Shown piece by piece: positions 58,858 through 64,000 of a DNA stretch of 64,000 nucleotides. Positions within the stretch are counted from its first letter, which is position 1, and every line of letters begins with the position of its first letter. The notes under the pieces were generated by a model. That model ran no database searches and was not told the DNA's origin. It saw only the letters and a list, made by a program, of their open reading frames with translations. A program made the position numbers and the translations under genes. Where the stretch lies: the NCBI RefSeq assembly GCF_053078305.1, contig NZ_CP166879.1; one strand, written 5' to 3'.

Positions 58858-58883
58858 GCCAGCCTTCGGGCTGGCGTTTTTTA
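58858..58883. terminator. Bidirectional terminator between eno (+) and the convergent TPM gene (-)
   Basis: GCCAGCC-TTCG-GGCTGGC followed by GTTTTTT and preceded by an A-run. Confidence 0.8.
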
Positions 58884-58891
58884 TGGTTGAG

Positions 58892-59785
58892 TTACCAGCG
58901 ACCGGACGCGCCGCCACCGCCAGAAGAACCGCCCCCGCCGCTAAATCCGCCGCCACTTGAGCCTCCACCGGAAGAGGATGAAGAAGAACTTTTTCTTGAA
59001 GCTCTTTCTTTACTGAGTTTTTTGTATTTGGCGCGTAGCTTTTTATTGACGATAAGCCAAAAAATAACCAGTGGTACGCTCGCAAAAGGCGTTAACATAC
59101 CGCAGGCAACGATTAAATTGGTCCATGGTCCTGGCTCGGCAACATAGAGGAATACCATCCCGTAAATGGCGCCAGTGAGAGTGATCCAGGGTAAATTCGA
59201 CGGATCGGTAAAAACAATAAAATATGAAAGTACCGCCAGCAATATAATTACAGCAAGCGATAATGGAATAGGGGGATTGATACTGTAATAATCCCCCTTG
59301 TCTTCCGATAATTCACCATTCAACAGAAGCGCGCCGATATTTTCGCTTGCCAGTGTTAATCCACCCATCAGGTCATCACTTTTGAAGGCAGGGATCAATA
59401 TATCCCTGATAATCTTCGCCGCTTGCAGGTCGGTAACCACCCCTTCCAGCCCGTAGCCAACCTCAATACGAACAGCATGATCCTCCCAGGCAACCAGAAG
59501 TAAAATACCATCGTTTCTCTGCTTATCTCCCAGTTTCCAGCTATCAAAAACGCGTGTTGCATATTGTTCAATGGAATCGTCTCCGGTGGACGGCACTACT
59601 AATACAGCGACCTGCGCCCGTGTTTTATGTGTAATATCCTGCAGTTGCTGTGTCAGTGATTGTTGTTCAGAAGTGCTTAACGTACCAGTAATATCGGTCA
59701 CCTGTTGGCGCAGCTCCGGCACAGCAATTTGCTGGGCAAGCCCAGGAAGGCACCACAAAGTGAATAGAATAAAGATTAAGCGCAT
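58892..59785 (-). CDS. TPM-domain membrane protein (YgcG-like), eno-proximal paralogue
   Basis: Signal peptide MRLIFILFTLWCLPGLAQQ, then TPM-like region (…ITGTLSTSEQQSLTQQLQ…AQVAVLVVPSTG…), hydrophobic segments, and C-terminal Gly/Ser tail ending SGRW; ATG at 59785 preferred over the TTG at 59797. Confidence 0.8.
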   Translation of the reverse strand: MRLIFILFTLWCLPGLAQQIAVPELRQQVTDITGTLSTSEQQSLTQQLQDITHKTRAQVAVLVVPSTGDDSIEQYATRVFDSWKLGDKQRNDGILLLVAWEDHAVRIEVGYGLEGVVTDLQAAKIIRDILIPAFKSDDLMGGLTLASENIGALLLNGELSEDKGDYYSINPPIPLSLAVIILLAVLSYFIVFTDPSNLPWITLTGAIYGMVFLYVAEPGPWTNLIVACGMLTPFASVPLVIFWLIVNKKLRAKYKKLSKERASRKSSSSSSSGGGSSGGGFSGGGGSSGGGGASGRW

Positions 59786-59790
59786 TACGA

Positions 59791-60939
59791 TCACCAACGG
59801 CCGGATGAACCGCCGCCTCCTGAAGAACCGCCACCACCGCGGAAAGAATTTCTCGACGAAGAGCGAGAATGAGCATTACGATTCCCCGTTTTCCTGTTGC
59901 TTTTTTCTCCTGACCCCAGCTTAAGATTGCCAGTAAATTTGGCCACAATGATCAGCAGAACGATGCCAGCAATGGTTATTGGGCCGATAAAATGATCAAT
60001 TAACCCAATAATTGTTGAGATGAATGCAATATCTTTATTACTGGCGAACACCAGGCACCATCCCACAATAATTATCAGCATCACGACAAACAATGAATTT
60101 CGTCCTGATTCACGAACCTGCGGAGTCTTCTTTTGTTTTTTCACTTTAGCGTTTTTATTTTTTGGGGCCAGCATCATAGGAAATACGCGGCACAAATTAA
60201 AAACTACCGCGAGACGCTGCTTGCAGGTTGTTGCTAACAATAAACTAAAACAAACGACCGATACCCGCCGAATGATGACATCGTCCTGAAAGGAGAAAAA
60301 CCAGACCATAGGGGTAATCATCGATATCATCCATATGCCACGCCGTGGGCGGCTGGCAAATCGCCAGAGGACAACGATGGCAACGATCATCAGCAGTGTC
60401 CAGGCAAGACATGGCAGCGAACGTTGCGGATTAGCAAACAGATGATTGGCTAAAGCATCCAAAGGGCTAAGGTTCGCTTTGATATGGGTAAACTGTGCGA
60501 TGCTTTCAATTCCGCCCGTTAATCCAGCAAAGAGATTGTTTTTTTCGAATTCTGGCTGCATATGGTAACGAACAATTTGCGCAGCTTGTTCCGGCGGCAA
60601 CATCTCTTCCAGTCCATGTCCAATCTTCATTGACGCCAGCCCTTCCGGCCATACGACGAGAATTAAGATACCTTCGCCATATCGCTTCTCTCCAACGGGT
60701 TTCCAGTGATATACCCCGTATCTCTGCGAGGCTGCAAGTTTAATGTTTTTGCCCCCTGTGGTCGGCGTAACCAACACGGCCACCTGGAAGTGGTTTTGCT
60801 GCTCGAGAGTCTGTAATTGTTGAGTTAAAGCAGTTTGTTCTTCTGTCGTTAATGTCCCGGTTAAGTCATTCACTGAAGGCAATCGTTCAGCGAATACCTG
60901 AAAACTGCATAGCATCAGAAGTAAGAGAAAAATACGCAT
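59791..60939 (-). CDS. TPM-domain membrane protein, divergent and longer middle paralogue
   Basis: Signal peptide, TPM-like N-terminal region (SVNDLTGTLTTEEQTALTQQLQ…), several hydrophobic helices, a Lys-rich segment (KNKNAKVKKQKK) and a Gly/Ser tail ending SGRW. Confidence 0.75.
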   Translation of the reverse strand: MRIFLLLLMLCSFQVFAERLPSVNDLTGTLTTEEQTALTQQLQTLEQQNHFQVAVLVTPTTGGKNIKLAASQRYGVYHWKPVGEKRYGEGILILVVWPEGLASMKIGHGLEEMLPPEQAAQIVRYHMQPEFEKNNLFAGLTGGIESIAQFTHIKANLSPLDALANHLFANPQRSLPCLAWTLLMIVAIVVLWRFASRPRRGIWMISMITPMVWFFSFQDDVIIRRVSVVCFSLLLATTCKQRLAVVFNLCRVFPMMLAPKNKNAKVKKQKKTPQVRESGRNSLFVVMLIIIVGWCLVFASNKDIAFISTIIGLIDHFIGPITIAGIVLLIIVAKFTGNLKLGSGEKSNRKTGNRNAHSRSSSRNSFRGGGGSSGGGGSSGRW

Positions 60940-60956
60940 ATCAATTCCTTTTGTTA

Positions 60957-61847
60957 CTAGCGCCCGGAAGCGCCACCGCCACCAGATGAACCGCCACCAC
61001 CGCTGAAATTGTCATTGTTGAATGAAGAGGATGACGATGATGAATAGTGGGAGGAAGAATTGCTTCTTGTATGGCGTGATGGCTGGTTGACATCACGCAT
61101 CAAATCCCGAACTTTTTTGCCGAAGGGAGTAACAGCGATGGCGACAGCCAGGAACGGTGTGGCGAAGCAGAGTAATGTTGCGAGTACTCCCCAGCTTCCG
61201 CTGAAGCCTGCTATAGGTAAAACAAAGGCCAGTACAATAGCTGCGAAGCAAATTACTCCCAGCGTTTTGATATATCCTCTGGCAGAAATAAACGTCAGTA
61301 CTATCGCCCAGACTAACAATGCCCACCAACCGCTAAAGGGCAAAGGGTGATCGGTCGGTGTAATCGTTGCTAAATTATTCCCCGTCAGACGACTTTCAAG
61401 ATCGCTGATCCCCTTTTGTAAACCGACAGCAAGGTCGCCTTTTTTAAATGCAGGAATAATATTGTTGCGAATAATTTTCCCGGACTGCGCATCCGTAATA
61501 ATACCTTCCAGTCCGTAACCGATTTCAATACGCACGGTATGATCCTGCCAGGCGACTAACAGTAGAACGCCATTATCGCGGTCTTTATCACCCGGTTTCC
61601 AGCTATCGAATACCCGCGTTGCGTACTGCTCGATGGTTTCATCGCCTGTTGTATCAACCACTAACACGACCAACTGTGCGTGGTTTTTTTGCGTCAGGGC
61701 TTTAATCTGGTTGGTCAGGGTGTTTACTTCGCTGTTTGTTAATGTGCCGGTTAAGTCATTCACATACTTGGGGGATTCAGGTACTGGAATTTGTGTGGCA
61801 AACACAGATGAACAGAAGAAAGCCATAAGGAAGATAAAATTTCGCAT
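60957..61847 (-). CDS. TPM-domain membrane protein (YgcG-like), LemA-proximal paralogue
   Basis: From the ATG at 61847 (MRNFIFLMAFFCSSVFA signal peptide), TPM-like region closely similar to the eno-proximal paralogue, hydrophobic segments and a Ser-rich/Gly-rich tail. Confidence 0.8.
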   Translation of the reverse strand: MRNFIFLMAFFCSSVFATQIPVPESPKYVNDLTGTLTNSEVNTLTNQIKALTQKNHAQLVVLVVDTTGDETIEQYATRVFDSWKPGDKDRDNGVLLLVAWQDHTVRIEIGYGLEGIITDAQSGKIIRNNIIPAFKKGDLAVGLQKGISDLESRLTGNNLATITPTDHPLPFSGWWALLVWAIVLTFISARGYIKTLGVICFAAIVLAFVLPIAGFSGSWGVLATLLCFATPFLAVAIAVTPFGKKVRDLMRDVNQPSRHTRSNSSSHYSSSSSSSFNNDNFSGGGGSSGGGGASGR

Positions 61848-61860
61848 AGAACTTCCCCGC

Positions 61861-62463
61861 TTAATGAGCATTAGCATTCTGGCTAAAATCTATTGTTGGG
61901 GCTTTACTTACTGCGGTGACATCATCCGGCAAATAATTTTTCTTTGGTGTGTAATCCATGACCTTTGCGGTTAATACAGCGGGGAATTTGCGGATAGTGA
62001 CATTATATTGTTCAATGGCTTTAATATATCTTCCTCGCGCAACGGCAATTCTATTTTCACTTCCTTCGAGCTGTACCATTAAGTTTTGATAGAGCTCTTG
62101 AGCCTTTAACTCAGGGTAACGCTCACTAATTATCGTTAACTGACCGAGAGTGCGAGTCACCTGCGCCTGGGCCTGTTGCCAGGCTTGTAATTTTTGTGCA
62201 TCTCCCGGAGCTTGCTGAAGATCGCTGCTGGCGCGATTAGCCTGGCTACGAGCCAATGTTACGGCTTCCAAAACGTCTTTTTCATGGCTGGAATAACCTT
62301 TAATACTGGCGACAAGATTAGGAATAAGATCGGCGCGACGTTGATATTGATTCAATACCTCAGACCAGGAGGCGTTAACCTGCTCATCATAGGTTTGAAT
62401 ATCGTTATATCCACAGCCTGATAAATTGAAAATAAATATAATTACGATGAATATTCTGAGCAT
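61861..62463 (-). CDS. LemA-family lipoprotein
   Basis: 200-aa ORF with lipobox (…IFNLSGC) and LemA-like sequence (…WSEVLNQYQRRADLIPNLV…); first gene of a four-gene minus-strand cluster. Confidence 0.8.
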   Translation of the reverse strand: MLRIFIVIIFIFNLSGCGYNDIQTYDEQVNASWSEVLNQYQRRADLIPNLVASIKGYSSHEKDVLEAVTLARSQANRASSDLQQAPGDAQKLQAWQQAQAQVTRTLGQLTIISERYPELKAQELYQNLMVQLEGSENRIAVARGRYIKAIEQYNVTIRKFPAVLTAKVMDYTPKKNYLPDDVTAVSKAPTIDFSQNANAH

Positions 62464-62635
62464 GTTTAAATCCCTTTTAATTAATTCCTTAAAACATAAT
62501 ACTCTGCTTCATTTTATTCTTTATGATCTAATCCACTTTTTGCCATAAACCTGCCTGTAACAGAATGTTAATAAGACATGATTGTTGTGGCAGGATCTGC
62601 AATAATTAACAATTATCCACTTCACAGAGAATGCT

Positions 62636-63307: not shown

Positions 63308-63645
63308 TTAAACATTTATAAGCGTTATAAATGGGTGGAACCTGTAAAGACTTCTACTCATTTATATTCTTTGTCGTCTCTGAAAAACCTCCATTTTGCC
63401 CATCCTGAACTAATCATTATCATTCTCTACAAATTCTGTGGCGTTAATTTTTCACTGGAGTGAAAATTATTGCGGTAAAGTTTGGTAGATTTTAGTTTGT
63501 ATAGAGTTATTTTAAATATTTACCTTTTTAATCAATGGGTTAAGTGCTCTTTAACATAATGGATGTGTTGTTTGTGTGATACTGTAAAGTTGGTAGATTG
63601 TGACTGGCTTAAAAAATCATTAATTAATAATAGGTTATGTTTAGA
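63308..63645 (+). promoter_or_regulatory. AT-rich CRISPR leader
   Basis: About 340 bp of AT-rich non-coding sequence immediately upstream of the first repeat; orientation matches the crRNA-sense repeat. Confidence 0.7.
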
Positions 63646-64000
63646 GAGTTCCCCGCGCTAGCGGGGATAAACCGTAATGAGTCAGGGGAATACCGAATAT
63701 TTTATAGAGTTCCCCGCGCTAGCGGGGATAAACCGAAATTTATCGAGATCGGCAGGGGTTACTGACAGAGTTCCCCGCGCTAGCGGGGATAAACCGGCCG
63801 TTAATCCGGACTGCCAGCGAATAACGCTGAGTTCCCCGCGCTAGCGGGGATAAACCGCAACATATTTAAACGATTTAAGCCAGGCATATGAGTTCCCCGC
63901 GCTAGCGGGGATAAACCGGGATTCATCACGCGGTTATCCGGGGGCCGTTAGAGTTCCCCGCGCTAGCGGGGATAAACCGGTGGTTGCGGGGTTATCGGTG
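63646..64000 (+). CRISPR. Type I-E-like CRISPR array; 6 repeats and 5 complete spacers in the window, array continues beyond the window end
   Basis: 29-nt repeat GAGTTCCCCGCGCTAGCGGGGATAAACCG at 63646, 63707, 63768, 63829, 63890 and 63951, with 32-nt spacers: TAATGAGTCAGGGGAATACCGAATATTTTATA / AAATTTATCGAGATCGGCAGGGGTTACTGACA / GCCGTTAATCCGGACTGCCAGCGAATAACGCT / CAACATATTTAAACGATTTAAGCCAGGCATAT / GGATTCATCACGCGGTTATCCGGGGGCCGTTA; a sixth spacer is cut by the window end. Confidence 0.95.

Follow-up and report, generated by a model that had tools for sequence, protein, structure and literature searches.

A LemA-TPM operon between eno and queE in Escherichia: expansion of a widespread proteobacterial module at a fixed chromosomal site

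In many proteobacterial genera, a gene for a LemA-family protein is followed by genes for TPM-domain proteins, and the canonical module consists of LemA, a long TPM protein often named 'YgcG family' and a short TPM protein. TPM has been proposed to be a chaperone-like assembly domain, and its role as a phosphatase has been doubted (PMC11237479; bioRxiv 2025.01.14.632903). Psb32 binds a late assembly intermediate of photosystem II (bioRxiv 2025.05.08.652833), the activity of cbb3 oxidase needs a TPM protein (PMC8267372), the LemA-like helical bundle of MamQ has been described as a membrane scaffold or remodeller (PMC4902198), and in Flavobacterium lemA and a TPM gene are induced together on membrane perturbation (PMC13236525). 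Here, we describe a four-gene operon, lemA-TPM1-TPM2-TPM3, that lies between eno and queE on contig NZ_CP166879.1 (RefSeq assembly GCF_053078305.1), in a stretch of 64,000 nucleotides (nt) that we call the window and to whose numbering all positions refer. We show that this operon is an Escherichia-specific expansion of the widespread LemA-TPM module at a fixed chromosomal site. The genes themselves are not new, since RefSeq already annotates them as 'LemA family protein' and 'TPM domain-containing protein'. The points added by our analysis are four types of TPM paralogue that recombine, the restriction of type B to a narrow lineage, the lack of the short TPM partner at the locus and the origin of the K-12 gene yqcG; their value is incremental, and current knowledge is not overturned.

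The operon shares with the canonical module a LemA gene in first place, with the same lipobox, and directly after it, on the same strand, a gene for a TPM protein with a signal peptide, three transmembrane helices and a C-terminal GGGGASGxW motif. It differs in having no short TPM gene at the locus, in carrying the long form three times in copies 36-43% identical, and in a paralogue, type B, with a novel five-helix membrane module. These comparisons draw on a scan for LemA that covered one genome per species and in which neighbours were counted at 80 loci. A TPM open reading frame (ORF) adjoins LemA in 76 of the 80, and this adjacency across many proteobacterial genera argues for a functional coupling of the two families. 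A second TPM ORF of about 167 amino acids (aa) follows the long one in at least 53 loci; its product ends in NELPDxPVxL and is presumably cytoplasmic, since it has neither a signal peptide nor a hydrophobic helix. No such short ORF was found between lemA and eno in the window, which therefore lacks the LemA-TPM-TPM triad at this locus, and the short gene is likewise missing from enteric and Pseudomonas nitroreducens-group loci. LemA identities above 90% were seen only in E. coli and E. albertii; the next values are 70% in an Enterobacteriaceae metagenome-assembled genome, 55% in Buttiauxella and 52% in Erwinia persicina, followed by about 50% in Pseudomonas, Burkholderiales and Xanthomonadales.

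All four genes lie on the minus strand. The first, lemA (61861-62463), is an ORF for a LemA-family lipoprotein of 200 aa that matches Pfam PF04011. It is followed by TPM1 (60957-61847; 296 aa from the ATG of MRNF...), TPM2 (59791-60939; 382 aa) and TPM3 (58892-59785; 297 aa from the ATG of MRLIF...), which match Pfam PF04536 with E values of 6.4e-41, 2.6e-21 and 3.9e-38, respectively. We refer to TPM1, TPM2 and TPM3 as types A, B and C, and to the K-12 protein YgcG as type D. Read directly from the sequence, the gaps lemA/TPM1, TPM1/TPM2 and TPM2/TPM3 measure 13, 17 and 5 nt, and a purine-rich ribosome-binding site stands ahead of all four starts; RefSeq begins TPM3 at a TTG 12 nt upstream of the ATG of MRLIF..., overlapping TPM2. 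The 172 nt between lemA and queE (62464-62635, assigned to no strand) form a divergent control region with no further ORF, and the 115 nt on its queE side are those of K-12. At the other end, eno converges on TPM3, and the two genes have in common a bidirectional terminator (58858-58875, no strand), a G+C-rich hairpin of the form GCCAGCC-TTCG-GGCTGGC with T runs on both strands. The original prediction, made from the letters of the window, had placed a minus-strand lemA and three TPM genes between eno and queE, with the same gaps, a promoter region divergent with queE and a terminator shared with eno. Each of these elements is present where it was described, and its family assignments are borne out by profile searches, with Pfam E values from 1e-21 to 1e-48 for the four proteins. 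We regard the reality of the four-gene operon, its identity and its evolutionary description as close to certain.

LemA matches PF04011 over the entire model (positions 1-149 of 149; E 1.6e-48, 164.8 bits) and carries a lipobox, LSGC, at residues 14-17 (LSG-C17), with CGYND as the predicted mature N-terminus. Residues 23-177 match PDB entry 2ETD, the 'lemA protein' of T. maritima, with an E value of 1.6e-32. The full-length profile match, the N-terminal membrane anchor suggested by the lipobox and the helical bundle predicted by likeness to 2ETD together indicate a typical member of the LemA family, and the lipobox recurs in 73 of 82 homologous LemA ORFs. With MamQ, a protein of magnetosome membrane biogenesis, and with T. 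maritima LemA it shares membership in this family and the four-helix-bundle domain. MamQ, by contrast, is anchored by a transmembrane helix and belongs to the magnetosome island, while the LemA described here is a lipoprotein paired with TPM proteins; against the NCBIfam MamQ model it scores 89.3 bits, below the cut-off of 250.

TPM1 and TPM3 combine a signal-peptide-like N-terminus, a TPM domain, three hydrophobic helices and a Ser/Gly tail; TPM3 has a Lys-rich loop after its transmembrane helices and ends in GGGGASGRW. In TPM2, the TPM domain is divergent and leads into a longer membrane module with about five helices, after which comes the Gly tail. The architecture that had been proposed for each paralogue, namely a signal peptide, a TPM domain, hydrophobic helices and a Gly/Ser tail, is seen in all three proteins. 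Types A and C fit the long YgcG-type pattern of signal peptide, TPM domain, three transmembrane helices and GGGGASGxW, from which type B departs with its five or so helices; three hydrophobic helices follow the TPM domain in 49 of 54 long TPM proteins. Residues invariant across these 54 include D31, E114 and D119 (TPM1 numbering). In type B, D119 is replaced by Glu and the IEQYATRVF motif is lost.

An AlphaFold2 model of TPM1, built from an alignment of 54 sequences, has a mean predicted local distance difference test score (pLDDT) of 78.6, with the TPM domain above 90, the helices spanning residues 174-254 at 66-80 and the tail disordered. The model superposes on BA41 (5ANP) at about 2 Å with a Foldseek TM-score of 0.89-0.91, and its other Foldseek matches are a Rhodothermus TPM domain, PG_0361, Psb32, TLP18.3 and the TPM-fold subunit of mycobacterial respiratory supercomplexes. 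BA41, Psb32, TLP18.3 and the supercomplex subunit are each either a soluble TPM domain or a partner of a membrane complex on its extracytoplasmic side. Psb32/TLP18.3, which act in photosystem II assembly and repair, and the TPM-fold subunit of mycobacterial CIII2CIV2 supercomplexes resemble TPM1 in having an extracytoplasmic TPM fold on an energy-transducing membrane and an anchoring transmembrane helix; they differ in being only 14-17% identical to it and in having no LemA partner, Gly tail or three-helix module. Scores of the TPM proteins against the NCBIfam Psb32 model (31.5-35.9 bits) stay below its cut-off of 160. The TPM2 model, from an alignment of 17 sequences, reached a pLDDT of 38.7, too poor to compare its membrane module with known folds. 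Structure prediction, which had been suggested as a check, thus upheld the TPM fold for TPM1 and failed to do so for TPM2.

All three TPM proteins of the window have a tail that ends in GGGGSSGGGG(A/S)SGR(W). The DNA encoding it forms a repeat in three copies on the minus strand, at 58894-58946 (TPM3), 59793-59845 (TPM2) and 60956-61008 (TPM1). These copies share 75-79% of their nucleotides and specify nearly the same peptide, which argues that the peptide is under selection, since it is almost unchanged while the DNA has diverged. Across the family, the C-terminus GGGG(S/F)xGGGGASGxW was found in 66 of 82 long TPM ORFs, most exceptions being truncated at contig ends. Because the tail stays conserved in lineages with no short TPM gene next door, its partner is probably not the short TPM protein. 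In the window, the last codon of TPM1 is TAG, as opposed to TGG (Trp) followed by TAA in every other type-A allele compared, so that the protein ends in ...ASGR. Several type-B proteins of E. albertii have likewise lost the terminal Trp, a residue near-invariant in the family. The last four residues of the TPM1 tail (292-295, window positions 60960-60971 approximately) are predicted as a beta-strand with a pLDDT of about 73, and this modelled strand hints at a docking interaction.

To place this arrangement among E. coli, we surveyed 5,426 complete genomes, in 5,425 of which the flanks match, and counted as carriers those with at least 80% of the interval. The four-gene form is present in 1,102 (20%), including O157:H7 and LF82, and the K-12 form, yqcG plus ygcG, in about 72%. 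Gene-specific queries found lemA in 1,454 genomes, type B (TPM2) in 1,104 and the K-12 ygcG type (D) in 4,290. In a sample of 60 rows taken at even steps down the ranking of the composite query, 43 have the K-12 form and nine have LemA-A-B-C; another four have LemA-A-B with a third gene of K-12-type (C/D) sequence, three have LemA-A with an unrelated ORF of 120 aa, and one has almost nothing. Elsewhere, one E. coli genome has LemA-A-C-D, and another strain has an insertion sequence (IS) element, then B, then a C/D mosaic. E. albertii carries LemA-A-B-C between queE and eno. The eno-queE site holds several old haplotypes, of which the window represents LemA-A-B-C. The view of the locus as variable and accessory agrees with the presence of the four-gene form in 1,102 of the 5,426 genomes, and the opposing possibility, that all E. 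coli might carry the four genes unchanged, does not apply, as only 20% carry them. Variable as it is, the cluster is chromosomal and flanked by the housekeeping genes eno and queE, and it does not qualify as a mobile element or accessory island. Plasmid and phage searches returned no true match to it, the lone full-length 'plasmid' match being a record of 4.9 Mb. Carriers include pathogens, among them O157:H7, LF82 and an isolate from cerebrospinal fluid.

Some rearrangements at the site involve unrelated DNA. In E. coli 1912D004 (L002, 3189-3551), a haplotype of about 5% of genomes, types B and C are replaced by the unrelated two-helix ORF of 120 aa, which has its own terminator-like hairpin and no Pfam-type, NCBIfam, PADLOC or PHROG match. 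Insertions of IS4, IS1A and ISEc45 recur between eno and queE in a minority of strains (H8, H23, H25, H93, H123 and L004), and in L004 ISEc45 and pieces of unrelated genes take the place of the lemA side.

The four Escherichia types of TPM protein, A to D, are 36-43% identical to one another. The 'three tandem paralogues' of the original prediction describe the window correctly and understate the family, which has four types, and the low identity speaks for an old divergence with no recent change of copy number. Type B has full-length relatives in E. coli and E. albertii only. Its membrane module alone was found in 12 proteins among 1.84 billion cluster representatives, two of which (38-40% identity) fit, by their length and match pattern, proteins of the Klebsiella spallanzanii type. 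K. spallanzanii (L090) has at the queE/eno site a LemA 79% identical to that of the window, a TPM protein 51% identical to type A and a B-type protein that has no TPM domain. This last protein, of 268-285 aa, follows the LemA and TPM genes in K. spallanzanii (L090, 6001-6858) and in a Logan contig (L091, 5379-6191); it has the type-B signal peptide, the membrane module and a GGGGASGRW tail and has lost the TPM domain, so membrane module and tail can persist without the ectodomain. The K. spallanzanii cluster is thus like that of the window in its site, its LemA, its A-like TPM protein and its gene for a B-type membrane module, and unlike it in having three genes instead of four, a B-type protein without TPM domain and a type I-E array of 22 repeats (clustered regularly interspaced short palindromic repeats, CRISPR) directly after it. 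Since a related cluster occupies the same site in K. spallanzanii, the cluster is either older than Escherichia or has been exchanged between genera.

The K-12 form, yqcG-ygcG in the b2778 region, has the same site, queE-proximal promoter DNA, terminator and Gly-tail end as the window, and its ygcG has the same TPM architecture; it differs in that lemA is gone past its first 35 nt and types A and B are absent. Homology between the two forms extends from queE to 62429, 35 nt into lemA, and is found again from 58973 through the terminator, beginning with the last 80 nt or so of TPM3, which encode the Gly tail. The 115 nt next to queE are identical, and the next 155 nt or so about 75% identical. 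TPM3 (type C) stands at the position of K-12 ygcG. YgcG is 42% identical to TPM3 and 36% to TPM1, and at 36-42% identity to types A and C the K-12 form is best seen as an old, separate haplotype and not as a recent deletion. We also considered ygcG as a TPM1/TPM3 chimera that arose by unequal crossing-over, and rejected this on the same identities; at the DNA level, ygcG resembles the window only over its final 80 nt or so and, at 68-69%, in the conserved TPM core.

The single ygcG that had been given for K-12 is correct, to which K-12-type genomes, with a ygcG of 290 aa (TPM), add a 46-codon gene, yqcG, annotated as a cell envelope stress response protein. In the K-12 form, the yqcG frame opens at an upstream ATG and reads across what was once the lemA start. 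This ORF is absent from the window, where a stop comes after the upstream ATG, and a 1-nt deletion in the K-12 form puts the ATG in frame with the lemA signal peptide. In the resulting in-frame alignment, ...FTKIIFIFSV of YqcG stands against ...FIVIIFIFNL of LemA. Because the lipoprotein signal of LemA is kept across Proteobacteria (the 73 of 82 ORFs mentioned above), we take lemA to be the older state. As judged from these alignments, the 5' part of yqcG appears to be a relic of the lemA leader and signal peptide, and K-12 a reduced haplotype. The 3' half of yqcG gave a local alignment score of 29 with the 3' end of lemA, as against 25 ± 4 for shuffles, which is not significant. The K-12 annotation can thereby be reinterpreted: ygcG is probably all that is left of a larger array, and YqcG is likely to stem, at its 5' end, from the lemA leader and signal peptide.

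Sequence comparison indicates that the TPM types recombine at conserved motifs. The C/D mosaic is 95-100% identical to type C in sliding windows over residues 1-80 and D-like beyond, and the switch falls inside IEQYATRVFD, a motif common to A, C and D. The Gly-tail repeats likewise appear to be short recombination substrates. Ratios of nonsynonymous to synonymous substitution rates (dN/dS) against the window are 0 for eno, 0.01-0.03 for queE and 0.02-0.10 for lemA. For the TPM genes they are 0.14-0.31 for type A, 0.10-0.23 for type C where orthologous, and 0.13-0.96 for type B (0.45-0.64 in most E. coli pairs). The TPM genes, type B most of all, are far less constrained than eno, queE and lemA, and the dN/dS of no gene shows gene-wide positive selection. 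The low ratios of LemA (0.02-0.10) and of types A and C (0.1-0.3) argue that the operon genes are maintained.

Clues to the conditions under which the operon acts come from its control region. In K-12, the queE/yqcG intergenic region carries a sigma-S peak in chromatin immunoprecipitation (PMC4447067), and phosphorylated PhoP binds upstream of queE, the expression of which is raised by deletion of yqcG (PMC4974570). By analogy with the K-12 promoter allele, the operon would be expected to be expressed through sigma-S in stationary phase and also in response to envelope or PhoPQ stress. A pattern scan found a PhoP-box-like site with two mismatches at 62546-62562, within the 115 nt identical to K-12. 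Such sites are no commoner across the window than expected by chance, and because these weak sites are not enriched we treat it as a lead only. Promoter phylogenetic footprinting in Escherichia and Klebsiella revealed no clear conserved motif. Expression of queE, the product of which connects PhoPQ stress with cell division, is driven by this control region as well, and since it is common to lemA and queE, carriers and non-carriers may differ in the PhoPQ-queE circuit.

Taking these observations together with the distant relatives of LemA and TPM proteins, we propose that the operon may encode a stress-induced, periplasm-facing scaffold or assembly module for envelope maintenance, in which the paralogues differ in their membrane modules; we give this proposal about an even chance of being right. 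LemA would be a periplasmic lipoprotein, and the TPM proteins would hold their TPM domain in the periplasm, cross the inner membrane an odd number of times and extend a flexible Ser/Gly tail into the cytoplasm, an orientation suggested by the TPM domain lying outside, the odd number of helices and the basic residues after the last one. The four proteins could then form a stress-induced scaffold at the inner membrane, in which the LemA bundle and the TPM ectodomains would bind and stabilise, or assemble and repair, membrane-embedded complexes from the periplasmic side. The membrane modules of A, B and C may give differing specificity for clients or partners, and the tail may couple the complex to a putative cytoplasmic partner. 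An envelope role had been suggested from the start, and the lipobox, signal peptides and transmembrane helices back that location. We regard the module as accessory and dispensable, and as standing outside CRISPR or phage immunity.

Several points weigh against this proposal. The mechanism is drawn from distant TPM and LemA relatives, with Psb32 and MamQ scores far under their cut-offs, and signal-peptide cleavage and topology were judged from hydrophobicity and charge alone. Searches of the literature on ygcG, yqcG, LemA with TPM, the COG and Pfam identifiers and the O157 locus tags found no functional study. The canonical short cytoplasmic TPM partner is missing at the locus of the window, and regulation may not be the same as in K-12, with which the promoter region is only about 75% identical over its distal 55 nt. 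Any role must be conditional, because about 80% of E. coli lack the module or have it in reduced form. The constraint on type B is weak, with dN/dS up to about 0.6-0.9, and in O157 strain Al Ain (L085, the sole O157 locus aligned) codon 225 of type A is changed from TTA to TGA, which cuts the protein to 224 aa and removes the third helix and the tail. Given the relaxed type B, the O157 nonsense codon and the loss of Trp from TPM1 of the window, parts of the array may be decaying.

Taken to its conclusion, this last point would mean that the cluster is being lost from Escherichia and that its selected function is gone, as the reduced K-12 form of about 72% of genomes, the IS insertions at the locus and the three signs of decay just named might suggest. 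We consider such an outcome quite unlikely, since even in the comparison with E. albertii the dN/dS of LemA stays at 0.02-0.10 and that of types A and C at 0.1-0.3, the window and most carriers examined have all four ORFs intact, and the tail peptide is kept despite synonymous divergence. A different kind of function is implied by the Pfam family name, TPM_phosphatase: the TPM domains could be periplasmic enzymes, either phosphatases or nucleotidases, with a phosphate substrate that is itself periplasmic or lipid-linked, and LemA could be an accessory factor. BA41, the closest solved structure, has been described as having ATPase/ADPase activity (work cited in PMC11237479), and the invariant D31, E114 and D119 of the 54 long TPM proteins fit a metal or ligand site. 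Nonetheless, type B has Glu for D119 and no IEQYATRVF motif, the Klebsiella relative without TPM domain keeps its membrane module and tail, two comparative analyses call the phosphatase assignment unlikely (PMC11237479; bioRxiv 2025.01.14.632903), and the cellular roles that have been characterised are in non-enzymatic assembly (PMC8267372; bioRxiv 2025.05.08.652833). We therefore judge an enzymatic role improbable.

A third explanation starts from the neighbourhood, where queE separates the cluster from a type I-E CRISPR array that begins at 63640. The operon might then be an envelope module related to phages or colicins, for example in the exclusion of incoming DNA or toxins, whose variability beside CRISPR reflects an arms race. 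The presence/absence polymorphism, the four divergent and recombining types, the position of type I-E arrays beside the cluster in Escherichia and at its other end in K. spallanzanii, and the occurrence of LemA homologues in phage genomes (PHROG 1383, E 3e-22; an Acinetobacter phage) are all compatible with this idea. It is nevertheless very unlikely. A search of PADLOC (PADLOC-DB 2023, E <= 0.01) returned no family match for any of the four proteins, and scans for defence systems, phage families and Rfam elements gave nothing to back a phage, defence or RNA element. The cluster is bordered by housekeeping genes and not by a defence island, none of the proteins has a nuclease, ATPase or other effector domain, and gene-wide dN/dS is below 1 for all genes. 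The array is also found at the same place in K-12-form genomes without lemA, and outside Escherichia and Klebsiella a nearby repeat array turned up at no more than one of about 78 LemA loci, as a dubious repeat of three copies; no consistent linkage of the LemA family with CRISPR arrays or cas genes emerges. The earlier hint that the CRISPR neighbour marks a phage-related module is not supported, given the lack of a PADLOC match and the presence of the array in genomes without lemA. We do not argue for a CRISPR linkage from Escherichia and K. spallanzanii, because two lineages do not suffice for it and shared regional synteny explains the arrangement more simply.

It is tempting to speculate further that the eno-queE site maintains an old, perhaps balanced, polymorphism of a trans-envelope LemA-TPM system. 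Cassettes A to D would be reshuffled at IEQYATRVFD and at the Gly-tail repeats, each bringing its own membrane module and thereby its own client or target; the near-invariant cytoplasmic C-terminus GGGGASGxW would serve as a docking peptide through which events in the periplasm are signalled to a cytoplasmic partner, and YqcG, the verified small protein of K-12, would be a new gene that arose from the remains of the lemA signal peptide. We think it unlikely that this picture holds as a whole. If it did, O157:H7 and LF82 would offer a tractable model for a widespread bacterial envelope system. LemA and YgcG-type TPM proteins form a gene pair conserved across Proteobacteria, and the question of its function is genetically approachable, because E. 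coli offers versions with the module, with a reduced form and with rearranged forms at one fixed site.

A few further observations concern the annotation and surroundings of these genes. LemA of the window matches PHROG 1383 ('virion structural protein') with an E value of 3e-22, and the record of an Acinetobacter phage of 240 kb has an annotated LemA gene, which together indicate that LemA homologues exist in some phage genomes. RefSeq tags intact type-A genes (L086, L087, L089 and L002) as 'partial, missing C-terminus', though their ORFs are complete. In K. spallanzanii (L090, 6860-8174), the array of 22 type I-E repeats (CGGTTTATCCCCGCTGGCGCGGGGAACAC) lies on the eno side, 2 nt after the last gene of the cluster, and a remnant of two CRISPR repeats is found at the matching place after the Klebsiella-type cluster of L091 (6268-6357). 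Finally, all six CRISPR repeats visible in the window (63648-63979) read ...CCCCGCGCTAGCGGGG..., while ...CGCCAGCG... stands in those of the closest genome (L001) and of the other E. coli loci; CCCCGCGCTAGCGGGG and CGCCAGCG differ by a uniform one-base variant in the loop of the repeat hairpin.

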